Counted from the stretch's first letter, positions 2,434 to 56,014 are shown. The stretch is DNA of 64,000 bases from Candidatus Omnitrophota bacterium (GCA_041651035.1 JBAZKC010000002.1:201046-265045), one strand, 5' to 3'. Made by a program: numbers and translations. The notes: generated from the letters alone by a model not told the origin.

Positions 2434-5148
2434 ATGGATATTCCATCCCGCTATAATCCCAAAGACACAGAAGATAAGTGGTATAAGATCTGGGAAGAAA
2501 AGGATCTTTTCTCCGCGAAGCCCGATCCTGCCAAGAAACCCTTCTCTATAGTTATGCCTCCCCCGAATGTAACCGGGATATTACATATGGGCCATGCCTT
2601 AAACAACACTATTCAGGATATACTTATCCGTTATCACCGCATGAAAGGCGAAAGATCCCTTTGGATGCCGGGAACTGACCATGCCGGTATTGCCACGCAA
2701 AACGTAGTAGAAAGATCAATTGCCAAGGGAGGGCTTAAACGCCAGGATTTAGGCAGAGATAAATTTATCAAGAAGGTATGGGAATGGAAAGAACAATACG
2801 GCTCGACTATTACGCGCCAATTAAGAAAGTTGGGCGCTTCCTGTGACTGGGCAAGGGCCCGGTTTACCATGGACGAAGAATATTCCCGGGCGGTGATTGA
2901 AGTATTTGTAAGGCTTTACGAGAAAGATCTAATATATAGAGGTAATTATATTATTAACTGGTGCCCGCGCTGTCAAACCGCCCTTTCAGATGAAGAAGCT
3001 CCTCATCATGAAATACAGGGCAATTTGTATTATTTAAAGTATCCGCTTAAGCCGGGGCAGTTTCCTATGGGAACAGCTCCTGAATTTATAGTAGTCGCTA
3101 CTACCCGCCCCGAAACAATGCTGGGTGACACCGCTGTAGCGGTCAATCCTAAAGATAAACGTTATAAAAAGCTTGTCGGTAAAATCCTGATTTTGCCTTT
3201 AGTTAATAAAGAAATAAAAATAATCGCGGATAGTATGGTGGATATGGAATTCGGCACCGGCGCGGTCAAGGTAACTCCCGCTCACGACCCCAATGATTAC
3301 GCCTTAGGCAAGAAACACGGCTTGGAGTTTGTAAATGTGCTGGACCCCCGCGGAGGCATGAATGAGAACGCCGGCAATTACAAAGGCCTGGACAGATTTG
3401 AGGCAAGAAAAGTTATCCTAGAGAACCTGGAAGGCAAGGGCCTGCTTGAGAAAATAGAACCTCATACCTTATCCGCCGGACATTGTTACCGCTGCCACAC
3501 TATAATTGAACCGTATTTTTCAGAACAATGGTTTGTAAAGATGCAGCCGCTGGCAAAACCGGCAATAGAAGCGGTCAAAAAAGGAAAGATCAAATTTTTC
3601 CCCAAACGCTGGACTAAAGTTTATCTTAATTGGATGGATAATATCCAGGATTGGTGTATATCCAGGCAGATCTGGTGGGGCCATCGCCTGCCTGTCTACT
3701 ACTGTAAAGATTGTTGTAATCAGGGCAAGAAAGGTATAATTGTATCCCGCCTGAAGCCTGAAAAATGCCCGGATTGCGGTTCAGCGGATATCTATCAGGA
3801 CGCGGATGTCCTGGATACCTGGTTTTCAAGCTGGCTATGGCCTTTTGCCGCGTTTTACTGGCCAGAGGGACTGTCCCTGAAGGCCTGCCTGCCGGCAGGC
3901 AGGGGAGCTGCCCCTAAAGAAGATTTGAAATATTTTTATCCTACCTCGGTCTTAGTGACCGCGCCGGAGATCATTTTCTTTTGGGTCGCGCGCATGATCA
4001 TGGCTGGCATGGAATTTATGAAAGACATCCCCTTTAAGGATGTTTATATCCATGGTACAGTGCGCGATATTGAAGGCAAAAAGATGTCCAAATCTTTAGG
4101 CAATGTTATTGACCCTCTGGACATCATAAATGAATACGGCGTAGACGCGCTGCGCTTCAGCCTTATTTCCATAACCGCCCAGGGCCAGGACATATTCTTA
4201 TCCAAAGAAAGATTCGAGCAGGGAAGGAATTTTGCCAATAAGATCTGGAATGCCTCCAGGTTTATCTTGATGAATCTGGACCAGGGGCTTTCTCTAGAGG
4301 AGGCTGTCCCTAAGGAGAATTCAAACATTATTAATCGCTGGATCTTAAGCCGGCTCCACTCAACCTTAAAAGAAGTAAGTAAGGATCTGGATACCTATAA
4401 ATTTAATGAAGCGGCGAATACACTCTACGGGTTTTTCTGGCATGAATTTTGCGACTGGTACCTGGAAATAATTAAACCGGATATAAAAAATAGGGAAAAC
4501 CAGGCCGTTATGTATACTGTCCTGGAAGAATGCCTAAAACTGCTGCATCCTTTTATGCCTTTTGTCACTGAAGAAATCTGGCAGAGGATACGTGAGCAGG
4601 GAACAGCCCCTGCCGGGGATAGTATCATGATCCAGCCCTGGCCCCATATACAGGCGCGGATGATTGATAAAAAACTGGAAAAACACACGCAATGCCTGTT
4701 TGATGTGATCACGCAGATAAGGAACCTGCGCGGTTCAATAGAGATCAAACCGGAACAAGCAGTTAAAGTCTCTATCTATGCGCATTCTAAGGCCAAACAT
4801 AGCCTGCTTAAGGATAACGCGCGGATAATTGATAACCTTGCCAGGTTGGAAAGCCTGGAATTCCTTGTTTCCAGCCAGAGGCCCGGGGCTACTATCAGCG
4901 CCATAGCAGAAGATATAGATATATACCTGCATTTTACAGGCCTGCTTGATCTTGCCGGGGAACAACATAAGATAGAAGAAAAAATAAGTAACACAGAAAA
5001 AATTATTAGATCTAAGGGGCCCCGGATGGAAAATGCCGAGTTTATCAAAAAGGCGCCAAAAGAGATCATTGATAAAGAAAAGGAAAGCCTGGTTAAGCTA
5101 AACGCTGAGTTGGCCCGCCTTAGAAAGATGGCAGATGAATTACGTTAA
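2434..5148 (+). CDS. valS: Valyl-tRNA synthetase
   Basis: 904 aa. HMGH (HIGH-type) motif PNVTGILHMGHAL, KMSKS motif KMSKSLGNVIDP, and a C-terminal coiled coil. It carries a 14-18 aa in-frame insertion at aa 478-496 (see findings). Confidence 0.95.
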   Translation: MDIPSRYNPKDTEDKWYKIWEEKDLFSAKPDPAKKPFSIVMPPPNVTGILHMGHALNNTIQDILIRYHRMKGERSLWMPGTDHAGIATQNVVERSIAKGGLKRQDLGRDKFIKKVWEWKEQYGSTITRQLRKLGASCDWARARFTMDEEYSRAVIEVFVRLYEKDLIYRGNYIINWCPRCQTALSDEEAPHHEIQGNLYYLKYPLKPGQFPMGTAPEFIVVATTRPETMLGDTAVAVNPKDKRYKKLVGKILILPLVNKEIKIIADSMVDMEFGTGAVKVTPAHDPNDYALGKKHGLEFVNVLDPRGGMNENAGNYKGLDRFEARKVILENLEGKGLLEKIEPHTLSAGHCYRCHTIIEPYFSEQWFVKMQPLAKPAIEAVKKGKIKFFPKRWTKVYLNWMDNIQDWCISRQIWWGHRLPVYYCKDCCNQGKKGIIVSRLKPEKCPDCGSADIYQDADVLDTWFSSWLWPFAAFYWPEGLSLKACLPAGRGAAPKEDLKYFYPTSVLVTAPEIIFFWVARMIMAGMEFMKDIPFKDVYIHGTVRDIEGKKMSKSLGNVIDPLDIINEYGVDALRFSLISITAQGQDIFLSKERFEQGRNFANKIWNASRFILMNLDQGLSLEEAVPKENSNIINRWILSRLHSTLKEVSKDLDTYKFNEAANTLYGFFWHEFCDWYLEIIKPDIKNRENQAVMYTVLEECLKLLHPFMPFVTEEIWQRIREQGTAPAGDSIMIQPWPHIQARMIDKKLEKHTQCLFDVITQIRNLRGSIEIKPEQAVKVSIYAHSKAKHSLLKDNARIIDNLARLESLEFLVSSQRPGATISAIAEDIDIYLHFTGLLDLAGEQHKIEEKISNTEKIIRSKGPRMENAEFIKKAPKEIIDKEKESLVKLNAELARLRKMADELR

Positions 5149-5965: not shown

Positions 5966-7996
5966 ATGGAAAAGTTTAAACTGGTTTCGTCTTATGAGCC
6001 CTGCGGAGACCAGCCTAAAGCAATCAAGGAGCTGACTGAAACACTTTTCTCAGGCAACAGGTTCCAGACTCTTCTGGGGGTTACCGGAAGCGGAAAAACC
6101 TACACCCTTGCCAATGTTATCGCTAAATTAAACCTGCCGACTTTGGTGATCTCGCATAATAAAACTTTAGCCGCCCAGCTGTATTCAGAATTTAAAGAGT
6201 TTTTCCCGCATAACGCGGTGGAGTATTTTGTCAGCTACTACGATTATTACCAACCGGAAGCTTATATACCCTCAACAGATACTTATATAGAGAAAGATTC
6301 CGCCATCAATGACAGGCTGGACCGCTTAAGGCTTTCCGCGACGAGTTCGCTTATGTCGCGCAATGACTGCCTGATCGTCGCTTCCGTTTCCTGTATTTAT
6401 AATCTCGGCAGCCCCCAGGATTACCGCGGGTCGCTGGTCCTTATTAAGAAGGCACAGAACGTTTCCCGCGATGAGTTGATCTCGAGTCTTATTCAGATAC
6501 AATACGAAAGGAATGATCATGAATTTATACGCGGAAGGCTGCGGGTCAGAGGGGATGTGCTGGAGATCTTTCCTTCTTATCAGGAAAAAGGCTTACGCGT
6601 AGAATTTCTTGGCGATAAAATAGAACGGATCAGCGAGATAAATCCAGTATCGGGAGAAATCTTAAATACCCTGGAGAAAACAGCGGTATATCCGGCCAAG
6701 CATTTTACTGTTTCTCAAGATAAGATCGACGCGGCTATGGAATCTATAGAAAAGGAGTTGAAAGGCAGGGTTAAGGCCCTAACGAGTAAGAATAAGTTAT
6801 TGGAAGCCCAAAGGCTCAATACGCGCACGCGTTATGATATGGAAATGTTAAAAGAAATCGGTTATTGCCACGGAATTGAGAATTATTCCCGGCATCTTTC
6901 CGGAAGGCCCTCCGGTTTCAGGCCCTATTGCCTGATTGATTATTTCCCGCGGGATTTCTTGACCATAATCGACGAGTCACACGTGACTATCCCCCAAATA
7001 AGGGGTATGTATGAAGGTGACCGCGCCAGAAAAGAGGTTTTAACAGAATATGGATTCAGGCTCCCGTCATGTCTGGATAACCGCCCCTTAAAGTTTGATG
7101 AATTCAATGAACTTATAAAACAGGCGGTCTATGTCTCGGCAACGCCTAATGAATACGAAATTAAGCAGAGCAAAAAGAAAATAATTGAGCAGATAATCAG
7201 GCCTACAGGGTTAGTTGACCCCCAGATAATCATTAAACCTACCACGGGACAGATAGAAGACCTCATAAAAGAAGTCAAAGAACGCGCCAAGAAAAATGAA
7301 CGGGTTTTGGCGACCACCTTAACTAAACGCCTGGCAGAAGACCTAACAAGTTATTTACAGGAGAAGGGATTAAGGGTAAAATATCTACACTCTGAAATAA
7401 AGACCATCCAGCGTTCCAGCATCTTAAGGGCTTTAAGAAAAAGAGAGTTTGACTGCCTTATAGGGATAAACCTGTTAAGGGAAGGATTGGATCTGCCCGA
7501 AGTATCTTTAGTCGCGATACTTGATGCCGATAAAGAGGGGTTTTTACGTTCCGCTACTTCCTTGATCCAGGTTTCAGGCCGCGCGGCCCGTAATATAAAC
7601 GGAACGGTAATTATGTACGCGGATACCGTAACCGGCTCAATGAAAAAAGCGATCACTGAAAGCAACCGCCGCAGAATAATGCAAATGGAGTTTAATAAAA
7701 ATAATGGGATTACCCCGCGCTCTATTCAAAAGGCAATAAGGGAAGGGATAGAGGATTTGCAGGAATCAGAAGAATTCCTGGCTAACTTGACCGGGCAGGA
7801 GAAAGATGAATACGAATTAAACAAATATATTTCGGAATTAGAATACGAAATGGAATTAGCGGCAAGAAATTTACAATTTGAAAAGGCAGCGCTCATCAGA
7901 GACGAAATAAAAAAATTCAGGGACACCCAACTTGCCAAAGCTAAGCCTGCCTGCCGGCAGGCAGGGGTGTCCCCAGGAGTTAAGAAATGCTATTAG
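5966..7996 (+). CDS. uvrB: Excinuclease ABC subunit B
   Basis: 676 aa. Walker A GVTGSGKT, helicase motifs and the C-terminal UvrC-interaction coiled coil ([13 protein letters not shown]). It has a 20-aa C-terminal extension encoded by a palindromic repeat. Confidence 0.95.
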
Positions 7997-9220: not shown

Positions 9221-10876
9221 ATGGCAAAGCAATTGTTATTCAGGGATGAAGGCCGCAGGAAGATCTTAAGCGGTGTTGAGCAGTTAGCCGCGGCGGTCAA
9301 GGTAACATTAGGGCCCAAGGGCCGCAATGTGGTCATTGACAAGAAGTTCGGGTCGCCTACCATAACCAAAGACGGCGTTACAGTAGCTAAAGAAATAGAC
9401 TTGGAAGATCCGTTTGAGAATATGGGCGCGCAGATGGTAAAAGAAGTCGCGGAAAAAACCTCTGACATAGCTGGTGACGGCACCACAACAGCGACAATTC
9501 TGGCAGAAGCAATTTACCGCGAAGGTTTAAAGAACGTGACCGCGGGATCAAACCCGATGGCTTTAAAACGGGGAATTGAAAAGGCCGTAGAGAAGGTAGT
9601 TGAAGAGTTAAAAAAACTTTCCAAGCCCATTAACTTGGCTGAGAAGAAAGAAGTAGCGCAAGTTGCCTGTATTGCCGCTAACGGCGATCATAATATAGGT
9701 GATTTGATCGCGGAAGCAATGACCAAGGTTGGTAAAGACGGAGTTATTACGGTTGAAGAGGCAAAATCAACGGCCACTACGCTTGAGTTGGTAGAAGGTA
9801 TGCAGTTTGACCAGGGTTACCTCTCGCCTTACTTTGTTACTGACGCGGAGAGAATGGAAGTAATAATGGAAGATGCTTACATCCTTATCCATGAGAAGAA
9901 GATCTCTTCTTTAAAGGACCTATTGCCCTTATTGGAGAAGATCGCCCGCACCGGAAAACCACTTTTGATTTTAGCTGAAGAGGTTGAAGGCGAGGCGCTG
10001 GCGACATTAGTAGTTAACAAGATCCGCGGCACGCTCACAACCTGCGCTGTGAAAGCGCCCGGTTATGGAGATAGACGCAAGGCAATGCTTGAGGATATCG
10101 CGATCCTCACCGGAGGCAAAGCCATAACCGAAGATCTGGGTATTAAGCTGGAGAACGTGGATATCGAAGATCTAGGCCGCGCCAAAAGAGTAAAGATCGA
10201 CAAAGAAAATACCACCATTGTCGAAGGCGCCGGCAAGAGCCAGGCCCTTAACGCGAGGATTGCCCAGATTAAGAAACAAGTTGATGATACCGATTCAGAT
10301 TATGATAAAGAAAAGCTTCAGGAGCGCTTGGCAAAACTGGCAGGCGGCGTCGCGGTAATTAACGTAGGCGCGGCAACTGAAACCGAAATGAAAGAAAAGA
10401 AGGCTCGTGTTGAAGACGCGCTTCATGCGACTCGCGCCGCGGTCGAGGAAGGGATAATTCCCGGAGGCGGTGTGGGGTTATTGCGTACAATACCTGCATT
10501 AGATAAACTAAAGCTTGAGTCCGATGAGAAGATCGGAGTTGAGATCGTAAAGCGTTCCTTAGAGGAACCGATCAGGCAACTAGCTGATAATGCCGGATTA
10601 GAAGGCTCAGTGGTTGTGCAGCAAGTAAAGCAAGAAAAAACCAACGTAGGTTATGATGTAGCTCAAGACGCCTACGTGGATATGATTGCTGCCGGCGTAA
10701 TTGATCCTACCAAGGTTACGCGTTCAGCTTTACAAAATGCCGCAAGCATTGCCGCATTACTGCTGACAACTGAGGCGCTCATTACAGATAAACCCGAGAA
10801 GGACTCACCTATGCCTATGCCTCCAGGTGGAATGGGAGGAATGGGTGGAATGGGAGGAATGGGCGGCGGGTATTAA
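9221..10876 (+). CDS. groEL: Chaperonin GroEL
   Basis: 551 aa. AAKEVAE... and DGTTTATIL motifs, with the C-terminal GGM repeat tail. Confidence 0.97.
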
Positions 10877-23000: not shown

Positions 23001-23020
23001 CCTGCCTACCGGCAGGCAGG
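23001..23020. repeat. 20-bp palindrome CCTGCCTaCCGGCAGGCAGG directly abutting the hup RBS (GAGGAG)
   Basis: The same 20-mer (one mismatch) occurs at 3884-3903 inside valS and at 7946-7965 at the uvrB 3' end. Confidence 0.8.
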
Positions 23021-31009: not shown

Positions 31010-31078
31010 AACAGGGACTGTCCCCGAAAGGTAGCTCCTGCCGAGCTGTTCTTAGGGGACTGTCCCTAAAAATATAGG
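31010..31078. repeat. Intergenic pair of GGGACTGTCCC motifs flanking a short AGCTCCTGCCGAGCT inverted repeat. Related to the GGGAC(A/T)..CCC palindromic family.
   Basis: GGGACTGTCCCC at 31014-31025 and GGGGACTGTCCC at 31065-31076. The same 11-mer occurs at 3867-3877 next to the valS palindrome. Confidence 0.7.
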
Positions 31079-35938: not shown

Positions 35939-37333
35939 ATGAGAATACAAGTATTACGGCGCCAGTCAAAAGAACGGACAAAAGACTTCCTGGAAGTCGC
36001 TTTGGGGCTTTCCAAAGAAGAGGCGGAAAAAGAAGCAAGCCGCTGCCTTCAGTGCAAAAACCCTGCCTGCGTAAAAGGCTGCCCCGTCAATATAGATATA
36101 CCCGGCTTTATAAAACTGCTTAAAGAAAGTAAGCATAAAGAAGCGTTGGAGAAAATCAAAGAAAAGAATAATCTTCCGGCGGTCTGCGGCAGAGTATGCC
36201 CTCAAGAGAACCAGTGCGAAGCAGCCTGCGTCCTCAACAAGAAAAAAATACCTATAAATATCGGAGCCCTGGAAAGATACGCCGCGGATTATAAATCAAC
36301 CCATAGCCAAGATCTTATAACCCATAGCAAGCAGATGCAGGCTAAGATCGCGGTAGTAGGCTCAGGGCCGGCAGGACTAACCTGTGCCGCGGACCTGGCA
36401 AAAATGGATTATCGGGTTACTCTCTTTGAATCTTTGCATTTACCCGGAGGCGTATTGGCCTATGGAATACCGGAATTCAGGCTGCCTAAAGAAATCGTGG
36501 GAAGTGAAGTTGAATACATAAAAAGCCTGGGCGTAAATATAATAACCGATGCCCTTATTGGTTATACTCATACTATTGATGAATTATTACAGGAGGGTTT
36601 TAAGGCCATATTCGTAGCAACAGGCGCGGGCCTCCCGTTATTTTTAGGGATACCGGGGGAAAACTTAAACCGGGTTTACTCTGCCAACGAGTTCTTAACC
36701 CGTATTAACCTTATGAAGGCGTACAAATTCCCCGAATACGCCAGCCCTGTAAATATAGGCGAAAAGGTCGCGGTTATCGGCGGCGGGAATGTCGCGCTTG
36801 ACTGCGCGCGCGCTGCGCTCAGGTTAGGCAAACAAGTAACCCTGGCTTACCGGCGCACGGAAAAAGAAATGCCCGGCCGCGCTGAAGAAGTAGAAAATGC
36901 CAAAGAAGAAGGAGTGGTTTTTAAATTCTTAACCCAGCCGGTAAAAGTCCTTGGCGATGATAAAGGATTTGTAAAAGGCCTGGAATGTATTAAAATGGAG
37001 TTGGGAGAACCTGATGAATCAGGCAGGAGAAGGCCTGTCCCCGTAAAGGATTCCAATTTCATCCTGGATGTAGATACTATTATTGTAGCTATAGGGCAAA
37101 ACCCCAACCCGTTATTATCCAAAGTTACGCCCGGGCTTAAAACCAATAAAAACGGCACGATCTTTGTAGACGATAATTTTATGACCTCTCTGCCTGGAAT
37201 TTTTGCCGGAGGAGATATTATTACCGGCGCGGATACGGTTATTTCAGCTATGGGCGCAGGCAAAAAAGCCGCCGCCGCTATAGACAAATATATCAGGGAC
37301 ACCCAATCTGCTAAAGCTAAGGGTGTCCCCTAA
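35939..37333 (+). CDS. nfnB: NfnB/SudA/GltD-type NADPH-dependent oxidoreductase large subunit (glutamate synthase beta-chain homologue)
   Basis: 464 aa. N-terminal Fe-S cysteine motifs (CLQCKNPACVKGCP, CGRVCPQENQCEAAC) followed by FAD/NAD Rossmann motifs (VAVVGSGPAGL, VIGGGNVALD). The last 9 codons are encoded by a palindromic repeat. Confidence 0.8.
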   Translation: MRIQVLRRQSKERTKDFLEVALGLSKEEAEKEASRCLQCKNPACVKGCPVNIDIPGFIKLLKESKHKEALEKIKEKNNLPAVCGRVCPQENQCEAACVLNKKKIPINIGALERYAADYKSTHSQDLITHSKQMQAKIAVVGSGPAGLTCAADLAKMDYRVTLFESLHLPGGVLAYGIPEFRLPKEIVGSEVEYIKSLGVNIITDALIGYTHTIDELLQEGFKAIFVATGAGLPLFLGIPGENLNRVYSANEFLTRINLMKAYKFPEYASPVNIGEKVAVIGGGNVALDCARAALRLGKQVTLAYRRTEKEMPGRAEEVENAKEEGVVFKFLTQPVKVLGDDKGFVKGLECIKMELGEPDESGRRRPVPVKDSNFILDVDTIIVAIGQNPNPLLSKVTPGLKTNKNGTIFVDDNFMTSLPGIFAGGDIITGADTVISAMGAGKKAAAAIDKYIRDTQSAKAKGVP

Positions 37334-37410
37334 ATAAAAATAATTCCTAATAGGGGACACCCTCCCGATTGGTTGAAAGGGTGTCCCTCGATTGGCAAAA
37401 AGGGTGTCCC
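37296..37410. repeat. Cluster of three GGGACACCC / GGGTGTCCC hairpin elements (9-bp stems, about 16-nt loops) spanning the nfnB 3' end and the nfnB-panB spacer
   Basis: Element A runs 37296-37329; its loop AATCTGCTAAAGCTAA encodes the nfnB C-terminus. Element B runs 37354-37387. A third 3'-half GGGTGTCCC lies at 37402-37410. Compare the uvrB copy at 7920-7973. Confidence 0.85.
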
Positions 37411-47445: not shown

Positions 47446-49017
47446 ATGCTTTATCTGGCCTTCATCTTTCATATGCACCAGCCGTATTACAAGGACCTCT
47501 TAACCCAAGAGGCGGATCTACCCTGGGTACGCCTGCACGGGGCCAAGGATTACCTGGATATGGTCTTGATCCTGAAAAAATACCCCCTGATCCGCCAGAA
47601 CTTCAACCTCGTGCCGTCATTAATAGAACAGATAGAAGACTATAATAATCTGGCGGTAAAAGATAAATTCCTGACATTATCCCAGAAACCCGCCGAAGAT
47701 TTAACTTCTCAGGATAAAATATTCCTAACAGAGAATTTCTTTTCCATTAACACGGAAAAAGTAATTTCTATCCACCCGCGCTATTACGAATTATACCTTA
47801 AGAAACAGCGGAGGGCGGGCTTTACCGCGCAGGACTATTTAGACCTGCAAGTATGGTTTAATCTGGCCTGGATAGATCCCTGTTTCAGGCAGGATATACC
47901 TGAACTAAAGGACTTGATCGCCAAGGGAAGGTTCTTTAGCGAAGAAGATAAGCGGACCGTGCTAAACAAACACCTTAAGATCATAAAAGATATCATCCCT
48001 ACCTATAAGGAATTTTCAGACAGCCAACAAATAGAAGTCTCTATCACCCCTTACTATCATCCTATTTTACCTTTGCTCTACAACACTAATATTGCCAAAC
48101 AAGCCAACCCAAAGACTGTCCTGCCCCGGATAGGATTCGCTTATCCAGAAGACGCCCAAACCCAGATAGAAGAAGCCGTAAAATTCTATCAAGCCAGATT
48201 TAATAGCCCTCCTTCAGGCATGTGGCCGTCTGAAGAAGCGGTAAGCGAACATATCTTGCCGTTTATAATTCAGGCGGGATTAAATTGGATAGTTACTGAT
48301 GAGGCTATTCTCTTTAAATCCTTGAATAAGAAAAAAAGAGACGCGAGGCTTTTATACAGGCCGTATCTTCTAAAGAGAAAAAAGGGGGCATTAAATATAG
48401 TCTTTCGTGACAGGAATCTTTCGGATCTGATCGGGTTTACCTATCACTCCTGGAAGGCCAAAGACGCCGTAGATGATATGATGAAACACTTAGAGAATAT
48501 CGCGCAGGCATTCAAAGGACAGGATACCCTTGTTACCATTGCCATGGATGGCGAGAATGCCTGGGAATATTACCCTAATGACGGCCATGATTTTCTAGAA
48601 CTGTTTTACCAGAGGTTATCCGATTCCAAGATTATAACGACTACGACAATAAGAGATTACTTAAAGATGTTTTCTCCGAAGTTTGAAATCAAACGCCTTG
48701 CCGCCGGTTCCTGGATATACGGAGAATTCGGTAAGTGGATAGGCAATCCCTATAAGGTATACGCCTGGGAATGCCTGGCAGAAGCAAGAAAGAAGCTGGA
48801 AGAAGTAATCAAATCAGGAGGAGAGGGGATTAACTTAAGCCTGGCCTGGAAACAGATGTATATCGCAGAAGGCAGCGATTGGTTCTGGTGGTATGGAGAT
48901 GATCAACCTGATTTCGACAGGCTTTTCCGCATGCATTTATCTAACTTCTATACTATAATAGGTAAGGAGATACCCGGCTACCTGAAGAAACCCTTAGTTC
49001 CGCGCCTTATCCCATAG
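47446..49017 (+). CDS. Glycoside hydrolase family 57 protein (GH57 alpha-glucan branching / 4-alpha-glucanotransferase type)
   Basis: 523 aa. N-terminal IFHMHQPYY signature of GH57. Its size matches the roughly 520-aa GH57 branching enzymes. Confidence 0.85.
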   Translation: MLYLAFIFHMHQPYYKDLLTQEADLPWVRLHGAKDYLDMVLILKKYPLIRQNFNLVPSLIEQIEDYNNLAVKDKFLTLSQKPAEDLTSQDKIFLTENFFSINTEKVISIHPRYYELYLKKQRRAGFTAQDYLDLQVWFNLAWIDPCFRQDIPELKDLIAKGRFFSEEDKRTVLNKHLKIIKDIIPTYKEFSDSQQIEVSITPYYHPILPLLYNTNIAKQANPKTVLPRIGFAYPEDAQTQIEEAVKFYQARFNSPPSGMWPSEEAVSEHILPFIIQAGLNWIVTDEAILFKSLNKKKRDARLLYRPYLLKRKKGALNIVFRDRNLSDLIGFTYHSWKAKDAVDDMMKHLENIAQAFKGQDTLVTIAMDGENAWEYYPNDGHDFLELFYQRLSDSKIITTTTIRDYLKMFSPKFEIKRLAAGSWIYGEFGKWIGNPYKVYAWECLAEARKKLEEVIKSGGEGINLSLAWKQMYIAEGSDWFWWYGDDQPDFDRLFRMHLSNFYTIIGKEIPGYLKKPLVPRLIP

Positions 49018-49088
49018 CTCTTATCAGAACTAACAGACGAAAGGAAACATATTGACAGACAATGGGTTTTGTGTTATAAAAATTAAAA

Positions 49089-49649
49089 ATGGACAAGAAA
49101 GATATCTACGAACACCTGGCCAAGATCTATCTGGATGCTTCTTCCAAGAAGAAAAAAGCGCGCAATTACCCGAAGTTTTCTAAAAACCTTATTTTAGTAA
49201 GCGCTGTTTTCGTATTCGCGTCCAGCCTTATATTATTTAACAATTCCCAGCGGAAAAAAGCCTTAAATTCAGAGCTGGCACTTGTGCTTTTGCCTGAGGC
49301 GGCGAAACTTAACTTCCACTTTGACCCCGCCAGGAAAGAAACCTATTCCTTCAATTTAAACAAGTTAAGCTTAAGCCGGTTTAAGTCCTTGGCATTTTCC
49401 GTAAAAAAGACCGACCATAGGAATGCCGTTTCCTTAAGGGTTGAGTTTACCACTCCTTTTAAGGAAAGGTCTGAAGTCTATTTTAAAGATATACCGTATA
49501 AGTGGCATGATTTTAGAATAAACCTTTCTGAGTTTAAAGGCATAAGCGACTGGTCGGAAATATCCAGCCTTTCTTTTTCCGTTGAAGAATGGAACGCGCA
49601 GAGTAAAAAAGGCATAGTCTATATAGATAATGTAAGATTACTGAAATAG
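49089..49649 (+). CDS. Membrane-anchored protein with a putative carbohydrate-binding-module-like beta-sandwich domain
   Basis: 186 aa. Basic N-terminus, a single TM helix (LILVSAVFVFASSLILF), and a C-terminus GIVYIDNVRLLK that resembles the terminal strand of CBM4/9/11-type modules. Confidence 0.45.
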   Translation: MDKKDIYEHLAKIYLDASSKKKKARNYPKFSKNLILVSAVFVFASSLILFNNSQRKKALNSELALVLLPEAAKLNFHFDPARKETYSFNLNKLSLSRFKSLAFSVKKTDHRNAVSLRVEFTTPFKERSEVYFKDIPYKWHDFRINLSEFKGISDWSEISSLSFSVEEWNAQSKKGIVYIDNVRLLK

Positions 49650-49688
49650 AAGAAGGCATGGCTTGCATGCCCGAAAGGAGACAAGAAT

Positions 49689-50771
49689 ATGCGGATTATT
49701 TCTACGGCTAACCAGAAGGGCGGATGCGCCAAGACGACCACCGCGGTAAATTTAGCCGCGTCTTTAGCTGCTAATTCCAAGAAGGTCCTGCTGATAGACT
49801 TAGACCCGCAGGCGCATGCTACCTTGGGGTTAAATATTAAGGCCGACTTAAGCATCTATAACGTCCTTTCAAAAATAACCCACAAGAAAGCTAAATTAGA
49901 AAATATCGTGCAGAACTTAGGGGTTAATTTCGATATCGCCCCGTCCAGCATAGTATTAAGCACGCTGGAACAGGAGTTAGCCGGAGAAATAGGAAGAGAA
50001 TCCCGCCTTTGGGAAACATTGAATAATTTTAAAACCAGCTATGATTATATATTAATAGACTGCCCTCCCAATTTAGGGATACTGACTATAAACGCCATCC
50101 GCGCCTCGCATGAGATAATCGTGCCGGTAGAAGCAAGCAGATTTTCTCTTGAGGGCCTTGACCAACTTATCAGCATAATAAACCTGGTAAAAGAAAGATT
50201 GAGCCATAACGTAAGTTTTAAGGTACTCGTAACTAACTTTGACTCCCGGCTCAGGCACTCATTTAAAATGCTTGAGCGCATAAAGTCTAATTTCAAATCT
50301 CAATTATTCAATACTATAGTGCATGTAAACGTAAAATTAAAGGAGGCCCAGAACGAAGGGGAGCATATCTTTAATTACGATAAATACTGCCGCGGCGCCA
50401 AAGACTATTTCAGCTTAGCCAAAGAGCTCATCATGCAAGAAACTACGCCTCTTTCCTCCGGAGCATTAGAGAAAAAGATGCAGGATATCTTAAAAGAAAA
50501 ACTGCCCAGGCTGATGGAAATAACTTTTTCATTATCCGCGCCGGAGGCAAAAGAAGTTTATCTGGCGGGAGATTTTAATTCCTGGAAGTTAGATACCACG
50601 AGCAGAATGGAGCATAATAACGGCGCCTGGAAAAAAAAGGTCAGCCTTTCCAGCGGTAAGTACCGTTACCGCTTTGTAATTGACGGGGAGTGGAAAGAAG
50701 ACGCGAATAACCCCGTTAAGGAAATAAACCCCTACGGCTCGGTGGATTCCTTAATAGAAGTTAAAGGATAG
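49689..50771 (+). CDS. ParA/MinD-family P-loop ATPase fused to a C-terminal AMPK-beta-type glycogen-binding domain (CBM48)
   Basis: 360 aa. Deviant Walker A NQKGGCAKTTTAVNLA and Walker B ILIDCPPNLG. From about aa 275: KEVYLAGDFNSWKL...YRYRFVIDGEWKEDANNP...GSVDSLIEVK, which closely matches the AMPK-beta glycogen-binding domain (KEVYLSGSFNNW...YKFFVDGQWTHDPSEP...GTVNNIIQVK). Confidence 0.85.
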   Translation: MRIISTANQKGGCAKTTTAVNLAASLAANSKKVLLIDLDPQAHATLGLNIKADLSIYNVLSKITHKKAKLENIVQNLGVNFDIAPSSIVLSTLEQELAGEIGRESRLWETLNNFKTSYDYILIDCPPNLGILTINAIRASHEIIVPVEASRFSLEGLDQLISIINLVKERLSHNVSFKVLVTNFDSRLRHSFKMLERIKSNFKSQLFNTIVHVNVKLKEAQNEGEHIFNYDKYCRGAKDYFSLAKELIMQETTPLSSGALEKKMQDILKEKLPRLMEITFSLSAPEAKEVYLAGDFNSWKLDTTSRMEHNNGAWKKKVSLSSGKYRYRFVIDGEWKEDANNPVKEINPYGSVDSLIEVKG

Positions 50772-50779
50772 AAGCCCTT

Positions 50780-51106
50780 ATGACTACTCCGCAAGTAAAA
50801 AAAGACGCTCAGGAAGGAAAATTCTTCGCGGTAATTTCTTATATAAGTTTTCTTTGCGTAATCACCCTGCTTTTAAAGAAAGGCAACAAATTCGCTCTTT
50901 ACCACGCTAAGCAAGGCCTTGTGCTTTTTGTATTCGAAGTAGCGGCTTTTATCATCTCCATCGTCCCTCTGCTTGGCTGGCTGCTGGGTACATTCGGCTT
51001 AGCGGTATTCAGTATTTTTTCCTTATGGGGGATCCTTCAGGCATTAATGGGCAAGTATCCCCGCTTCCCCATAATCTCAGATATTGCTGACAACATTACT
51101 ATATAA
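50780..51106 (+). CDS. Small integral membrane protein (DUF4870-like)
   Basis: 108 aa with 2-3 TM helices. YHAKQ...LWGILQA resembles DUF4870. Confidence 0.55.
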   Translation: MTTPQVKKDAQEGKFFAVISYISFLCVITLLLKKGNKFALYHAKQGLVLFVFEVAAFIISIVPLLGWLLGTFGLAVFSIFSLWGILQALMGKYPRFPIISDIADNITI

Positions 51107-51145
51107 AAAATTGCCTCTAAAAAATATTAACCAAGGAGGTGCCTG

Positions 51146-51544
51146 ATGCCTGCCAAGAAAAAGGCGGTAAAAAGAAAAATTGTAAAAAAGAAACCAGCCA
51201 AGAAGAAAAGCACCGTTAAGAAACCGGTACGGGGCAAGGTTAAGAAACCGGTAGTTAAGAAACGGGCAACCAAGAAACCAGCGGCTGCTAAGAAGGCGAA
51301 AGAAAATGTTATCGGAAAGGTCACGCATTATTTTCCTCATGTCAGGGCAGCTGTAATAAAATTAAAAGGGCCGCTATCAACAGGAGACACGGTCAGGATC
51401 AAGGGCCACACTACGGAGTTTAAACAACGCATAATCTCTCTGCAGATAGACCGCGTTCCCATAAACTCCGCGAAAAAAGGCCAAGAGATCGGGTTATTAG
51501 TTGATTCCAGAGTAAGAAACGGAGATATGGTTTATAGTGTCTAG
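51146..51544 (+). CDS. Histone-H1-like lysine-rich protein with a C-terminal EF-Tu-domain-2-like beta-barrel
   Basis: 132 aa. The first about 50 residues are a KKP/KKA-rich tail (PAKKKAVKRKIVKKKPAKKKSTVKKPV...). The C-terminal 80 aa (GKVTHYFPHVRAAVIKLKGPLSTGDTVRIKG...GDMVY) resemble the GTP_EFTU_D2 barrel. Strong RBS AAGGAGG. Confidence 0.6.
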   Translation: MPAKKKAVKRKIVKKKPAKKKSTVKKPVRGKVKKPVVKKRATKKPAAAKKAKENVIGKVTHYFPHVRAAVIKLKGPLSTGDTVRIKGHTTEFKQRIISLQIDRVPINSAKKGQEIGLLVDSRVRNGDMVYSV

Positions 51545-51560
51545 CACGGAAGGAGGAGGG

Positions 51561-51743
51561 ATGAGGCTTTCAGAAATTGAGAAAAAGGCAAGAAGCATGG
51601 GTGTTAAAGACACCTGGAAATACTCTAAAAGGGAGTTGATCAAGACCATCCAGCGTAAAGAGGGTAATTTTGACTGTTTTGGGACAGCCCGCGGAAATTG
51701 CGGCCAAATGGCCTGCTGCTGGAGGCCTGATTGCGTAAGGTAA
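51561..51743 (+). CDS. Small protein with a Rho_N/SAP-like helix-hairpin N-terminus and a 5-Cys C-terminal tail
   Basis: 60 aa starting at the ATG at 51561 with a strong RBS (GGAAGGAGGAGGG). LSEIEKKARSMGVKD..SKRELIKTIQ resembles the Rho termination factor N-terminal (SAP-like) motif. It is followed by CFGTARGNCGQMACCWRPDC. Confidence 0.45.
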   Translation: MRLSEIEKKARSMGVKDTWKYSKRELIKTIQRKEGNFDCFGTARGNCGQMACCWRPDCVR

Positions 51744-51765
51744 CTAAGGAAAGGATAAGCCAGCA

Positions 51766-51951
51766 ATGAAATACAGGTGCCAGATTTGCGACAGAGATAT
51801 CGATGATTTCGCCAGCATTGCGCACATAAAGGCGGAAGAGTACATAATTAACTTAATAAGGCGGGACCATCCTGAATGGAAAAAAGAGGAAAAAACCTGC
51901 CATAAGTGCGTTGACTATTACCGTAAGCTGGTAAAAGAAACTGAAATTTAA
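51766..51951 (+). CDS. Small zinc-ribbon protein (CxxC...CxxC)
   Basis: 61 aa: MKYRCQICDRD...TCHKCVDYY. RBS AAGGAAAGGA. Confidence 0.4.
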   Translation: MKYRCQICDRDIDDFASIAHIKAEEYIINLIRRDHPEWKKEEKTCHKCVDYYRKLVKETEI

Positions 51952-51966
51952 ACAGGGAGGTTTCCG

Positions 51967-52251
51967 ATGATGGGATTTTCAGGTATGTTTGAAGCGCTAT
52001 TATTGATCGCCTTAGGTTTTGGTTACATAGTCCTGTATCTTGCCAAAAGAGAAGATAAAAGGCTGCAATTCCTGGGTTATTTCCTGGGTGCCGTGATCAT
52101 AACACTATCATTAACCTATCTTGTCATCAATGTCTTGACGCAAGCGTTCTTCTTAGCTCCAAAAACGCGCTATTACAACAGGAGCATAATACAACCGTCT
52201 AAGTCTATGCCGCGCCCCATGCCGCAGCAGGCACCCGCGCAAAAACCTTAA
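51967..52251 (+). CDS. Small membrane protein (2 TM) with a Pro/Gln-rich C-terminus
   Basis: 94 aa. Two hydrophobic helices and a PRPMPQQAPAQKP tail. RBS GGGAGG. Confidence 0.4.
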   Translation: MMGFSGMFEALLLIALGFGYIVLYLAKREDKRLQFLGYFLGAVIITLSLTYLVINVLTQAFFLAPKTRYYNRSIIQPSKSMPRPMPQQAPAQKP

Positions 52252-52258
52252 GATTTTC

Positions 52259-53212
52259 TTGATGCGTTATCTCATAACAGGGGGAGCGGGTTTCATCGGC
52301 TCCCACCTGGCAGAATATTTACTTAAACAAGGCCATTTTGTCCGCGTCCTGGATAATTTCTCCAGCGGTAAACGCGAAAATTTAAGCTTCACCAAAGAAC
52401 TGCCCCCCACGAAGTTTGAGCTTATTGACGGGGATATCCGCGATAAATCTGCCTGCGAAAAATCCTGCCTGGGCATTGATTATGTGCTTCATCAGGCAGC
52501 CCTGCGCTCAGTCCCAAAATCAATGAAAGACCCTCAAAGTTATAACGATGTTAATATAAATGGCGTACTTTTTATGCTCCAGGCAGCTTTAAAGGCAGGC
52601 ATAAAGCGCTTTGTATTTGCCTCATCAAGCTCCGTATATGGAGATACGGATAAGATCCCCGAGAAAGAAAAGGATTACCCCAGGTTAATTTCTCCTTACG
52701 CGCTTACCAAGCTGGCAGGAGAATATTATTGCCGCGTATTCAGCCAATCTTTCGGGTTAGAAACCGTGTCTTTGCGCTATTTTAATGTTTTCGGCTGCCG
52801 CCAGGCCTTAGATGACGAATACGCGGTAGTTATACCAAAATTCATCTATAGCATACTTCACGATCAACAGCCTCCGGTATTCGGCACAGGCAAACAATCC
52901 CGCGATTTTACCTATATAGATAATGTTGTCCAAGCCAATGTTCTGGCTGCTACCACAGCGGGCATAAGGGAGGCAGTATTTAATGTAGCCAATGGCAAAG
53001 ACCACACGATCCTGGAGCTGGTTGACCTCTTAAACAGAATACTCGAGAAAGACTCAAAACCCGTATTCCTGCCGCTGCGGCCAGGAGATGTCTTCCGCAC
53101 CTGTGCTGATATTTCCAGTATCAGAAAAGTTTTAGGCTATAAACCAAAGGTAGGCTTCGAAGAAGGGTTGCGTCGCACAGCTGCCTGGTTTAGCAAGTCG
53201 CTAAAACAATAA
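52259..53212 (+). CDS. NAD-dependent epimerase/dehydratase (extended SDR; UDP-sugar 4-epimerase or decarboxylase type)
   Basis: 317 aa. TGGAGFIGSHL Rossmann motif and the YxxxK catalytic motif (SPYALTK). Confidence 0.85.
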   Translation: MMRYLITGGAGFIGSHLAEYLLKQGHFVRVLDNFSSGKRENLSFTKELPPTKFELIDGDIRDKSACEKSCLGIDYVLHQAALRSVPKSMKDPQSYNDVNINGVLFMLQAALKAGIKRFVFASSSSVYGDTDKIPEKEKDYPRLISPYALTKLAGEYYCRVFSQSFGLETVSLRYFNVFGCRQALDDEYAVVIPKFIYSILHDQQPPVFGTGKQSRDFTYIDNVVQANVLAATTAGIREAVFNVANGKDHTILELVDLLNRILEKDSKPVFLPLRPGDVFRTCADISSIRKVLGYKPKVGFEEGLRRTAAWFSKSLKQ

Positions 53213-53307
53213 TTAAGAGTACATACTCATTATAACCGGGGCGTTAAGAATAGGTAAAAGTAAGTAAATCCTGATAAGCACAAACGCCGCTTTATAAGAG
53301 ACTATAA

Positions 53308-53658
53308 ATGCCTAATATTGTAGGAAGGCCTAAAAAATACCGAATAGTGCGGCAAGACCCGCGGATAAGCCAATTTAGCCCAAGAGGGAAGCCTGGCAGG
53401 CCGGATGAAGTTGAGCTTAGTATGGATCAATTCGAGGCTATAAGGCTGGCTGATTACATGGGCCTGGGACAGAAAGAAGCGGCAAAATCAATGCGCATAT
53501 CCCAACAAACCTTTAGCCGCGTGCTTAAAAAGGCGCGCAAATCCCTGGCAAACGGCTTGGTTAATGGAGCCGCTATCAAGATCCAGGGAGGTTCTTATAT
53601 AATCAGTTCCCGTGAGAATTCCCCGCCAGATAGCTTAAAAAAACCACCAATTCCATAG
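53308..53658 (+). CDS. DUF134 (UPF0251) family putative DNA-binding protein
   Basis: 116 aa. Sigma-region-4-like HTH LSMDQFEAIRLADYMGLGQKEAAKSMRISQQTFSRVLKKARKSL. Confidence 0.65.
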   Translation: MPNIVGRPKKYRIVRQDPRISQFSPRGKPGRPDEVELSMDQFEAIRLADYMGLGQKEAAKSMRISQQTFSRVLKKARKSLANGLVNGAAIKIQGGSYIISSRENSPPDSLKKPPIP

Positions 53659-53861
53659 GCATTTACAGGGCCAACCGCACTTTTTGCCCTATAAATACCC
53701 TTGTGCTCAACTTCCTATAATATATCTTATGTTAACTTGAGCATATTGAATATATTGCCCTAAGGCATTGTGTTATAATGAGTTAAGTTATGTATGTATT
53801 TTCCTGTGTATAAGCCAAACTTGACTTACTTCGACTTACTTACTTTCTTTAAGCTTTACAT

Positions 53862-54686: not shown

Positions 54687-54770
54687 AGTTTAAGGAGGCA
54701 AGATTTCACTCCCCATGAGAACACCCAGAAATACGGCGCGACAGAAAAAATCTCTGTTATACAGGTAGAA

Positions 54771-55907: not shown

Positions 55908-56014
55908 AGATTTTATATACCTTTGGACAACTTTAAAATAAATATTATCTAATTATTGTTTAGCTATAGATAGTATATATGTAGGACAGGCGGACTTTTA
56001 AATCAGATAAAATC

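Follow-up and report, generated by a model that had tools for sequence, protein, structure and literature searches.

A 20-nt palindrome nested within a hairpin repeat in the valyl-tRNA synthetase gene of an Omnitrophota bacterium

The stretch of DNA analysed here (the window; 64,000 nt of a Candidatus Omnitrophota bacterium, GCA_041651035.1 JBAZKC010000002.1:201046-265045) carries valS, encoding valyl-tRNA synthetase (ValRS), at 2434-5148; this and all other window features given below lie on the plus strand. The ORF appears intact, and its 904-aa product contains the Pfam domains tRNA-synt_1 (5.6e-138), Anticodon_1 and Val_tRNA-synt_C (the Pfam scan covered 7 ORFs of the window) and is 100% identical to NCBI entry P0001, 'valine--tRNA ligase, Candidatus Omnitrophota'. 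The class Ia ValRS architecture is present, namely the HIGH + KMSKS core (HMGH at residues 51-54, KMSKS at 550-554), editing domain, anticodon-binding domain and C-terminal coiled coil, and the T. thermophilus enzyme (1GAX) was matched at E 1.5e-42 over the 169 aa tested. The gene order leuA-valS-nadC-uvrB-coaX is common to the window and its relatives.

This valS carries 15 extra codons between WPE and KEDLKYFYPT, a stretch of ~4 residues in the T. thermophilus enzyme; in the 1GAX alignment the insert faces a 15-residue gap (WPEE---TEDLKAFYP), which falls between residue 473 and Thr474 of that structure. The loop so enlarged is in the catalytic domain, ~55 residues before KMSKS and immediately ahead of the conserved YFYPTSVLVTAPEIIFFW block. 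An initial annotation of the window had quoted an insert sequence inside valS, in frame and free of stop codons, together with a 31-residue translation: the sequence matches the window exactly, the translation is correct, and the frame is indeed open throughout the 904-aa ORF. Its further remark that other ValRS enzymes have only a short loop here agrees with the 1GAX gap and with loops of 8 or fewer residues (e.g., PELKDD, PKKSAD) in 40 of 120 Omnitrophota homologues. Across all 120 the loop ranges from 4 to 36 residues (40 short, 30 with a GxSP/GTVP-type element and 50 with other long inserts), in line with the same annotation's view of the segment as inserted repeat DNA rather than ancestral ValRS, and these states are scattered patchily over a rough neighbour-joining tree of the homologues. 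An AlphaFold2 model was discarded for placing the loop, as pLDDT was below 50 over residues 457-561 (mean for the model, 62.9); the low confidence probably stems from its shallow 47-sequence alignment, in which identity is nowhere below 69%. A literature search on ValRS domain boundaries found nothing. The loop would nonetheless be expected at the protein surface, and the insert is presumably neutral for the enzyme.

We resolved the insert by codon-level comparison with three relatives (L123, L125 and L121). The whole insert (3868-3915) consists of 48 nt, or 16 codons, replacing one codon of short-loop relatives, for a net gain of 15 aa and 45 nt. It is laid out as GGGACTGTCCC (3867-3877), TGAAG (3878-3882), G (3883), CCTGCCTGCCGGCAGGCAGG (3884-3903) and GGAGCTGCCCC (3904-3914). 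That is, it is made of two unrelated elements, one placed inside the other, and not of the single palindromic element initially annotated, whose GGGACTGTCCC arms belong to a different and apparently older element than the core. At the same valS site L123 has no insert, while L125 and L121 have the outer hairpin alone.

The outer 5' arm and loop in the window, GGGACTGTCCC with TGAAG(G) at 3867-3883, match GGGACTGTCCCTGAAGGGGACTGTCCC of L125 and the corresponding sequence of L121. The 3' arm is degenerate, with GGAGCTGCCCCT (3904-3915) replacing GGGACTGTCCCT, a change that can be written as an extra G plus T>C or alternatively as three substitutions, and the outer helix is absent from the fold predicted for the window valS. 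In L125 and L121 the element is predicted to form a 12-bp hairpin (-21.9 and -22.3 kcal/mol, z -3.6 and -4.8). Its general form is a 27-nt hairpin, GGGACTGTCCC-yGAAG-GGGACTGTCCC, of an Omnitrophota family that codes for GLS[L/P]KGTVP. The outer peptide (GLSLK..G..P) is common to relatives, as GLSLKGTVP in P0024 and GLSPKGTVP in P0002, and therefore predates this genome. Members of the family were found at no fewer than six ValRS sites among the homologues and also in intergenic DNA. L121 has a 51-nt long form twice, once between genes (8361) and once within valS in the reading frame (10621), the two interiors being almost the same, and the window has a 53-nt intergenic long form, GGGACTGTCCC-N31-GGGACTGTCCC, at 31014-31066, directly 5' of polX. 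From this distribution the outer family appears to behave as a small transposable repeat.

The inner element, or core, is the perfect 20-nt palindrome CCTGCCTGCCGGCAGGCAGG at 3884-3903, located where the loop of the outer hairpin meets its 3' arm and coding, together with G3883, for ACLPAGR. It comprises two 10-nt half-sites, (CCTG)2CC and GG(CAGG)2, and is predicted to fold into an 8-bp stem with a CCGG loop (-14.9 kcal/mol). Comparison with relatives, which the initial annotation had set as its own refuting test, gave a divided answer: the outer part is shared and older than this genome, and the ACLPAGR of the core is absent at this loop from all 119 other homologues. One homologue, P0088, has an independent core copy at a different ValRS site.

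The core adds a net 21 nt to valS although the dispersed unit is 20 nt and not a multiple of three, so the in-frame state is not a property of the element; the frame is kept through selection and one extra nucleotide. The annotated length divisible by three accordingly applies to the net gains of 21 nt (core) and 45 nt (whole insert) and fails for the unit itself. Two independent valS core copies each have one extra nucleotide, which lies within or beside the 3' arm in the window and is a T inside the core in L161, whose copy sits in a heptamer array. One point against the explanation favoured below is that even a temporary loss of the valS frame would be lethal.

Two further readings, an ancestral ValRS loop peculiar to this lineage and an artefact of MAG assembly, we find barely credible. 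The exact protein is indeed found in one assembly only, and the GLSLK..G..P part of the segment is shared with relatives; against this, the short loop is present in T. thermophilus and in a third of the homologues (40 of 120), the sequences flanking the core form contiguous in-frame valS sequence, the 20-mer recurs in cultured isolates as well as in Illumina, Nanopore and complete assemblies, and a compensating extra nucleotide is not expected of an artefact.

The 21-mer occurs three times in the window (once with one mismatch) and in none of 100 shuffles; two of the three core copies are inside ORFs, and the core flanks are AAGG/GGAG, TAAG/GGTG and TAAG/GAGG. The second copy is part of a composite of ~61 nt at the 3' end of uvrB (7919-7979), where a different hairpin, with arms GGGACACCC (7920-7928) and GGGTGTCCC (7965-7973), surrounds a core (7946-7965) that adjoins its 3' arm; the nested fold is predicted at -33.4 kcal/mol (z -2.8). 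This insert shifts the frame and creates a new tail of 25 residues, giving a UvrB of 676 aa vs. 657 aa in L121, L123 and L161, all of which are without the insert. A core-less paralogue of the uvrB hairpin, GGGACACCCaatctgctaaagctaagGGTGTCCC, was found at 37296-37329, where it overlaps the last part of a gltD-like gene, whose encoded tail is RDTQSAKAKGVP followed by the stop; the uvrB copy exceeds it by precisely the 20 nt of the core, and no target sequence is duplicated. The spacer 5' of panB holds additional arms of the GGGACACCC/GGGTGTCCC family (37354-37410). The third core copy (23001-23020) has the one mismatch (G8A) and is in the 83-nt dnaE-hup spacer, where its 3' end adjoins GGAGG, the HU gene's ribosome-binding site (start ATG at 23031); its predicted hairpin has -14.9 kcal/mol and z -3.6.

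The valS composite could in principle have arisen in one step, with an outer hairpin that already held the core being inserted or copied into valS. The whole uvrB composite is missing from three relatives, so composites may travel or arise together, and the outer element is patchy enough at this position in valS to permit an independent gain in this lineage. We nevertheless judge a single step unlikely. The outer arms differ, GGGACTGTCCC in valS vs. GGGACACCC in uvrB, as would follow from a core that is independent of its host hairpin; in L125 the same outer element, again with loop TGAAG, occupies that codon position but has no core; and the window holds no second composite of GGGACTGTCCC with core.

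The likely explanation, in our judgement, is that small pieces of selfish DNA, non-coding and able to form hairpins, have entered a permissive ValRS loop in two generations, one nested in the other. The 27-nt hairpin of the Omnitrophota-wide family (GGGACWGTCCC arms, coding G-L/Q-S-P..G-T-V-P) would have entered the loop first. The younger step, seen in this genome only among the 120 homologues, would have placed CCTGCCTGCCGGCAGGCAGG inside that hairpin, between its loop and its 3' arm. The valS mRNA would then be read straight through with ACLPAGR added, and valS would have survived because the net gain was 21 nt (20 plus the one extra). As the closest valS available for comparison is only ~75% identical to that of the window, we infer rather than observe the timing and order of these insertions.

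Beyond the window, at least 120 genome stretches, spread over more than 10 phyla, hold the exact 20-mer, where ~0.5 occurrences are expected for a 20-mer in 596 Gb; these counts and the taxon spread are lower bounds from a sample that is not representative. Listed carriers belong to Bacteroidota, Patescibacteria, Omnitrophota, Planctomycetota, Verrucomicrobia, Nitrospirota and others, with at least eight cultured Bacteroidota isolates; named carriers include Agriterribacter humi YJ03, Winogradskyella echinorum KCTC 22026, Flagellimonas yonaguniensis and Longitalea luteola. There were no cyanobacterial records among the 120 loci listed. Viral stretches with the exact 20-mer numbered 35, vs. none for either of two control palindromes (one of identical composition with its halves swapped, the other a re-ordered analogue) and none for an arbitrary 1-nt variant. 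A G8A subfamily recurs in 12 viral stretches, and the base that follows it is C in 16 of 19 copies, which hints at a 21-nt unit; assignment of the window's 23001 copy to this subfamily is doubtful, its flanks being G..G vs. the C..C typical of the subfamily. No exact copy was found among the cultured phages of INPHARED, and the PLSDB plasmids gave short or partial matches only (18-19 nt exact, or longer at 80-95% identity), mostly from high-GC hosts. In literature searches the 12-mer CCTGCCGGCAGG and GGGACTGTCCC occurred only in unrelated eukaryotic papers, and nothing relevant emerged on palindromic or in-frame elements in Omnitrophota. The cross-phylum spread of the 20-mer probably travels with phages.

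This recurrence bears on whether the palindrome could be generated locally at each site, by replication slippage or template switching on CCTG/CAGG repeats and with no moving unit. The core is internally repetitive, and tandem 21-nt arrays of a core variant are present in L159. We consider local generation highly improbable all the same: palindromes of the same composition or re-ordered design have no viral matches vs. the 35 of the core, the empty sites (37296, L125 and L121) have no CCTG repeats as seed, and an independent origin of 20 identical nucleotides in more than 150 unrelated contexts is impossible.

Target duplication is absent from 159 of 167 copies (flank identity of 0-3 nt), and seven of the remaining eight have flanking direct repeats of 7, 8 or 14 nt. 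[quoted passage not shown] Checking ~160 core copies for one conserved larger surrounding sequence or parent element yielded unrelated flanks. In the viral contig L146, ORF inspection of the 1.3 kb between inverted core-bearing repeats found a single plausible gene and no evident transposase; the repeats turned out to be a hairpin family whose loops carry different mini-palindromes, and a parent transposon was dismissed there.

Among copies with a flanking inverted repeat, the core adjoins an arm in 38% vs. 12% of controls (p = 1.7e-4). Flanking inverted repeats of at least 6 nt are lacking from 78% of copies, a fraction not enriched over controls (p = 0.14); hairpin targeting would thus apply at most to a subset. 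Nesting in hairpin repeats was seen in the window and L146, nesting of the core in its own copies in L018, L042 and L021, and flanking 7- or 14-nt direct repeats (heptamer arrays) in L045, L080, L082, L101, L134 and L144. Some ~96 of 125 copies are intergenic. Others reside in tRNA genes, among them a tRNA-Arg(TCT) gene of cultured carriers with the insert in its D loop; ARAGORN does not call tRNA genes interrupted by the core, and because L030 and L106 have an intact copy of the same tRNA near the interrupted one, some interrupted copies may be fragments, and the idea of the core as a tRNA intron was abandoned. Outside the window 19 cases of read-through were scored, ~8 of them in long ORFs (60 or more codons on each side) that close once the core is deleted. 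Copies in GatB (L104), FtsK (L013) and other genes leave long ORFs open, and the GatB loop exceeds that of solved structures by 7 residues. There may also be copies that break their genes.

A selected functional motif, whether a protein-binding site or an RNA hairpin that regulates transcription, mRNA stability or translation (regulatory also in valS), would account for the perfect conservation of 20 nt across phyla, the stable hairpin, the many intergenic copies and the adjacency of the 23001 copy to the HU ribosome-binding site. Such a role is nonetheless quite improbable, since the locations are unrelated (protein loops, tRNA genes, heptamer arrays, own copies), the palindrome is missing from orthologous sites of relatives, the valS and uvrB copies have no T-run following them, and a motif with a single function would not nest within itself; moreover, an Rfam scan of the window returned one tRNA only and no family matching the palindrome.

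The initial annotation had likened the insert to Rickettsia palindromic elements (RPEs). As summarised in PMC10969869 for the elements of Ogata et al. (2000), RPEs are ~150 bp long, form ten families, are confined to Rickettsia and have a conserved encoded peptide in each family. The likeness stands as regards behaviour: palindromic DNA is found in frame in housekeeping genes, adds a fold-compatible peptide and also occurs between genes, with in-frame copies in such unrelated genes as valS (window, L121, L125 and L161), the uvrB tail, GatB and FtsK. It is strongest for the outer GGGACWGTCCC element, whose 27 or 51 nt add 9 or 17 codons at many valS sites. Family membership falls away on size (core 20 nt, outer 27 nt or 51-53 nt in the long form, composite 48 nt, vs. 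~100-150 bp for RPEs) and on distribution, the inner element being a perfect palindrome, not a multiple of three and present in more than 10 phyla, and the host an Omnitrophota MAG; this separation is by size, encoded peptide and host range.

By analogy of habits, the closest precedent is the small dispersed repeats (SDRs) of cyanobacteria. Elhai et al. in 2008 reportedly described SDR1-8 of Nostocaceae as 'very small mobile repeated elements' of ~20-27 nt with hairpin potential. These are said to occur in tandem heptamer arrays, in other small repeats and in their own copies, to lack coding capacity and to be mobilised by an unknown mechanism. The core resembles them in its 20-nt dispersed unit (21 nt net in coding sequence), its 8-bp stem with CCGG loop and its presence in the same three settings, a likeness drawn from habits. 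It differs in being a perfect palindrome, identical in more than 10 phyla and viral contigs, in frame in essential genes and present in tRNA genes, whereas SDRs are reported solely from Nostocaceae in PMC5861425 (the Elhai work is also cited in PMC3116915). REP/REPIN sequences are high-copy, hairpin-forming palindromes of 20-40 nt moved in trans by RAYT (IS200/IS605-like Y1) transposases (PMC3116915; PMC3733652); REPs are extragenic, species-specific and imperfect, with a GTAG or CGTC tag at one end (PMC3733652). The core is perfect, cross-phylum and in coding sequence for two of the three window copies, and neither tag was found in the window core flanks or in flank position counts over 123 copies. 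Bacterial MITEs (ERIC, Correia, Nezha) are non-autonomous, hairpin-forming and sometimes translated within host ORFs, with ~50-500 bp, terminal inverted repeats for a known IS transposase and target-site duplications (PMC10969869). The core departs from these in having 20 nt, no duplication in ~95% of copies and no parent IS seen around ~160 copies. More distantly, the core is like other short GC-rich palindromes in an AT-richer genome. Mobile palindromes of this kind are the lineage-specific GC clusters of yeast mitochondria, which have 30-50+ bp and are occasionally in frame (var1); these belong to a eukaryotic organelle, and no sequence relation is claimed.

Having no coding capacity, the 20-mer would have to be moved in trans. 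It would integrate without target-site duplication, with subsets of insertions at stem-loop junctions, in register in heptamer arrays and inside its own copies, and within genes only those copies would persist that keep the frame in tolerant loops. A bolder reading, to which we give somewhat less than an even chance, makes CCTGCCTGCCGGCAGGCAGG a mobile element of ultra-small size, pan-bacterial and so far undescribed, for which phages serve as vehicles both inside phyla and from one phylum to another. It would make no target duplication and would prefer the junctions of stem and loop in single-stranded hairpins, be these other repeats, heptamer arrays, the D and variable loops of tRNAs or its own copies. 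A widespread enzyme or repair route, hitherto not connected with it, would integrate it, and the in-frame survivors would remodel loops of ValRS, GatB and FtsK.

To our knowledge, palindromic selfish DNA that settles in frame in essential genes is a textbook subject for Rickettsia only. Such settlement appears routine in Omnitrophota, where one ValRS loop is the landing pad for several unrelated families and the nested inserts illustrate stepwise loop growth. Gene calling, tRNA detection (as with the genes missed by ARAGORN), phylogenies built on alignments and the prediction of structures are all confounded by such inserts. The inner unit is much smaller than any element for which we know of a transposition mechanism, raising the question of what machinery is able to move 20 nt, a question that the presence of the 20-mer in cultured Bacteroidota opens to bench work. 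The 20-mer would carry the very small mobile repeated elements, Nostocaceae-only so far, to bacteria at large.

The segment in question lies within valS (2434-5148), a 904-codon ORF that encodes valyl-tRNA synthetase (Pfam: tRNA-synt_1, E 5.6e-138; Anticodon_1; Val_tRNA-synt_C) and is 100% identical to the NCBI valine--tRNA ligase protein of a Candidatus Omnitrophota MAG; the valS sequence with the insert is known from one assembly, its best homologues being 62-76% identical. The initial annotation had quoted a repeat inside this gene, which we confirmed at 3867-3914, where the window reads GGGACTGTCCC-TGAAG-G-CCTGCCTGCCGGCAGGCAGG-GGAGCTGCCCC, and the peptide it gave for the insert matches the in-frame translation of the ORF. 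The 21-mer it had described as repeated has three copies in the window (3883, 7945 and 23000, the last with one mismatch), against none in 100 dinucleotide-preserving shuffles. The observation is thus real and its core interpretation right in kind: the segment is inserted DNA. It is not a single element, however, but a nested composite of two kinds, a 20-nt perfect palindrome (the core) within a 27-nt hairpin with GGGACWGTCCC arms (the outer element). Nor does the proposed element length, a multiple of three, hold, since the dispersed unit is 20 nt.

That ValRS enzymes elsewhere are short at this point was borne out for Thermus thermophilus (PDB 1GAX), with a 15-residue gap aligned exactly at the insert (WPEE---TEDLKAFYP), and for part of the phylum. 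Among the 120 best ValRS homologues, all from Omnitrophota, the stretch from W-P to DLKYFYPT is hypervariable, at 4 to 36 residues: 40 have a short loop (e.g., PELKDD, PKKSAD, PNDSAD), 30 a motif of the type (K)G-Q/L-S-P-x-G-T-V/D-P, and 50 other long inserts of a few recurring repeat-like types. Recurring types after W476-P477 in different genomes include FEHIAYRISQDNDKRLAISDKQKD and QPSAISxQPSA..LKAESRKLKAE, which resemble further palindromic or heptamer repeats in translated form. Loop states are interspersed on a rough neighbour-joining tree, which marks the site as a hot spot where inserts have repeatedly been gained or lost. The loop precedes the conserved YFYPTSVLVTAPEIIFFW block, some 55 residues ahead of KMSKS, and is modelled by AlphaFold with low confidence across the insert region; it is likely to be tolerant of inserts.

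The DNA of three relatives, in which the order leuA-valS-nadC-uvrB-coaX-groES/EL is kept, separates the two elements. One (L123) has no insert (TGG CCA GAG CTA AAG GAT GAC), and two have the outer hairpin: L125 reads ..AAG GGA CTG TCC CTG AAG GGG ACT GTC CCT GAG.. (GLSLKGTVP) and L121 reads ..CAG GGA CTG TCC CCG AAG GGG ACT GTC CCT AAA.. (GLSPKGTVP). The core, translated as ACLPAGR, is absent from all three, and the 120-homologue alignment has this peptide at the loop site in none of the other homologues. The window is identical to L125 through the 5' arm and the TGAAG loop, after which come the 20-nt palindrome and a degenerate 3' arm, GGAGCTGCCCCT in place of GGGACTGTCCCT.

Since the codons of L125 and L121 spell the 27-nt hairpin GGGACTGTCCCyGAAGGGGACTGTCCC, the GLS..GTVP peptides are its translation. 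The hairpin folds at -21.9 and -22.3 kcal/mol (z-scores -3.6 and -4.8), and peptides of the family occur at no fewer than six ValRS positions across the homologues (near 207-213, 432, 476-491, 616-618 and 728). A 51-nt long form, GGGACTGTCCCcgtcagagct..aaagGGGACTGTCCC, is found in L121 once between genes and once in frame in valS, with nearly the same interior, and a 53-nt form lies upstream of polX in the window (31014-31066). From these sequences the GGGACWGTCCC-arm family behaves like a small transposable repeat of the Omnitrophota phylum.

On sequence grounds the inner 20-mer is independent of the outer family, because the uvrB-terminal copy (7946-7965) is housed in another hairpin, GGGACACCC..GGGTGTCCC, directly against its 3' arm. 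The 61-nt uvrB insert is absent from three relatives (L121, L123 and L161), where UvrB has 657 aa vs. 676 aa in the window; it shifts the frame, replacing the native C-terminus and stop codon with a new 25-residue tail. A core-less paralogue of this hairpin at 37296-37329 has GCTAAG joined directly to GGTGTCCCC, vs. GCTAAG, the core and then GGTGTCCCC at uvrB, a difference of exactly 20 nt without target duplication. The inner unit is thus a palindrome of 20 nt that occurs dispersed, and its exact length is all that separates filled from empty sites. The third copy, a one-mismatch variant (G8A) at 23001-23020, lies between dnaE and hup, right against the HU gene's ribosome-binding site. All three window copies have AAG before and G after.

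Several further features of this region were recorded. The uvrB end (7919-7996) and an unrelated gltD-like oxidoreductase (37286-37333) share an element-encoded tail, RDTQ(L/S)AKAK.., because the GGGACACCC hairpin repeat overlaps both 3' ends in the same frame. The spacer before panB (37296-37410) holds five clustered GGGACACCC/GGGTGTCCC arms, amounting to two hairpins and a solo arm, and in a Planctomycetales-labelled contig (L063) the 20-mer adjoins the same GGGACACC / CCAATCG-type repeat as this cluster. DnaE has 1139 aa in the window vs. an annotated 1602 aa in the relative L161 (22307-22850, where the gene runs off the locus), with intein hits (Intein_splicing, LAGLIDADG_3) in the latter. 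Cumulative GC skew peaks at about 48-52 kb and reverses sign afterwards (48000-56000), which may reflect an origin or terminus of replication, or else genes switching orientation.

When one genome per species (596 Gb) was scanned for exact matches, the 20-mer turned up in no fewer than 120 genome stretches, spread over more than 10 phyla; with uniform base composition, the expectation for a sequence of this length is about 0.5. Among the matches listed are many Bacteroidota, including eight cultured isolates (among the cultured carriers are Winogradskyella echinorum, Flagellimonas yonaguniensis, Longitalea luteola, Flavivirga sp., Aquiflexum lacus, Agriterribacter humi and Aestuariivivens sediminis), many Patescibacteria, including a curated complete WWE3 genome, and at least 10 Omnitrophota, including a single-cell genome. 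Also listed are Planctomycetota, Verrucomicrobia, Elusimicrobia, Ignavibacteria, Thermodesulfovibrionales, Thermodesulfobacteriota, Bdellovibrionales, Chloroflexi and Gammaproteobacteria-labelled MAGs. Carriers span Illumina, Nanopore and complete assemblies, so the distribution is no platform artefact. In IMG/VR viral contigs the 20-mer occurs in 35 stretches and the G8A variant in 12, while the half-swapped palindrome GGCAGGCAGGCCTGCCTGCC, a re-ordered analogue and an arbitrary one-base variant gave no matches there. The unit is thus present in unrelated genomes and viral contigs alike. No exact copy was found in cultured-phage records, plasmid records gave short or partial matches alone (longest exact stretch 19 nt), and Rfam had no match at the 20-mer. 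Its sequence appeared in no relevant paper, and as far as the searched literature shows, this cross-phylum palindrome is undescribed.

Flanks are unrelated from copy to copy in genome and viral stretches, so that the 20 nt make up the whole unit. Of 167 copies, 159 show no target duplication; direct repeats of 7, 8 or 14 nt flank seven of the other eight, which places these insertions in register in tandem heptamer arrays (L045:773, L080:187, L082:346, L101:1815, L134:8396, L144:3391 and L128:1660). Inverted repeats of at least 6 nt flank 37 copies, a frequency not enriched over controls (22% vs. 17%, P = 0.14), but within these 37 the core abuts an arm in 38% vs. 12% of control positions (P = 1.7e-4). 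The core also nests in itself, as CCTGCCTGCCG-core-GCAGGCAGG in L018 and L042 and as a copy inside a diverged copy in L021. It is found in tRNA genes too: at the D-loop 3' edge of a full-length tRNA-Arg(TCT) in Agriterribacter humi YJ03 (L085:45-137), in the anticodon loop of a tRNA-Gly-like copy, and in the variable loop of viral tRNA-Met (L150:2240-2330, L127:8570-8660), where it would mimic a long variable arm. Further tRNA genes or fragments with the core are in L015, L037, L099, L030, L106 and L157. ARAGORN did not call the tRNA genes interrupted by the core, and some may be fragments, since L030 and L106 have an intact copy of the same tRNA close by. In a viral hairpin family, GGGTGCCCCATCCTTGC..GCAAGGGTGGGTC (L146: 545-595, 2499-2549, 4198-4248, 8899-8946, 9926-9976 and 10383-10460), the arms enclose either a loop of just 7 nt, the 14-nt palindrome TCCGCCGCGGCGGA, or the 20-mer, the last placed at the loop/3'-arm junction; insertion into loops is thus common to several mini-palindromes. 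A separate viral contig ends in a tandem array (L159:3913-4142) in which a core variant, GGCCATGCCTACCGGCAGGCA, is repeated at least 10 times with a 21-nt period.

Where the core lies within a gene, the reading frame is preserved. Examples of long conserved ORFs that run straight through an exact 20-mer are GatB (L104), where the loop at the core is seven residues longer than in the T. maritima and Aquifex structures, FtsK (L013), in a loop of variable length, and a 356-aa ORF (L021), which we take to resemble a sugar-nucleotide dehydratase. Of 10 in-frame copies inspected from other genomes, eight (L104, L013, L043, L071, L053, L047, L014 and L074) use the frame ..C CTG CCT GCC GGC AGG CAG G.., giving LPAGRQ without cysteine, and the frames CLPAGR and PACRQAG are rare among them, a preference that points to selection on the peptide or to target bias. 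Relative to L125, valS in the window has the 20-mer and an altered 3' arm (an added G with a T>C or, alternatively, three substitutions), for a net gain of 21 nt at the core. An independent second valS copy (P0088, encoded in L161), at a different site within a CACAGTC heptamer array (10620-10680), reaches 21 nt because its core contains one additional T: CCTGCCTtGCCGGCAGGCAGG. Given that each of the two valS copies has such a compensating nucleotide, the insert must remain in the mRNA and be translated; excising 20 nt from the transcript would leave that nucleotide to throw the frame off. The 21st nucleotide may have come from imprecise insertion or from a later +1 change. In the recurrent G8A subfamily the unit is followed by C in 16 of 19 copies, making a 21-nt unit possible.

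Having no coding capacity, the 20-mer would have to rely on machinery supplied in trans. Its preference for junctions, its targets of single-strand type (the loops of hairpins, of tRNA genes and of the 20-mer itself) and the missing target duplication suggest that it integrates into single-stranded hairpins once these are extruded, which might, speculatively, occur during replication, with a strand-transferase of HUH/Y1 or similar kind, or a repair route, as the conceivable agent. Within coding sequence, selection would then retain in-frame copies in tolerant loops alone.

The initial annotation had likened the insert to Rickettsia palindromic elements (RPEs), in-frame palindromic selfish DNA in housekeeping genes (PMC10969869). 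The behaviour is indeed shared at valS, but the insert differs in size, in taxon and in the multiple-of-three property, so it is not an RPE. REP/REPIN sequences were rejected, as the 20-mer has no GTAG/CGTC tag and is neither extragenic nor species-specific (PMC3733652, PMC3116915). MITEs were likewise rejected, the 20-mer being far too small and without target duplication. The SDRs of Nostocaceae, 'very small mobile repeated elements' of 21-27 nt, were reportedly described by Elhai et al. in 2008 as occurring in heptamer arrays, nesting in themselves and having no known mechanism. These are the closest precedent, since the 20-mer shares both habits; unlike them, it forms a perfect palindrome, has the same sequence in different phyla and in viral contigs, and lies within the reading frame of essential genes. 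According to PMC5861425, SDRs do not occur outside Nostocaceae. The in-frame inserts in Omnitrophota valS add a new case to a behaviour already known; the 20-nt palindrome shared across phyla is the greater surprise.
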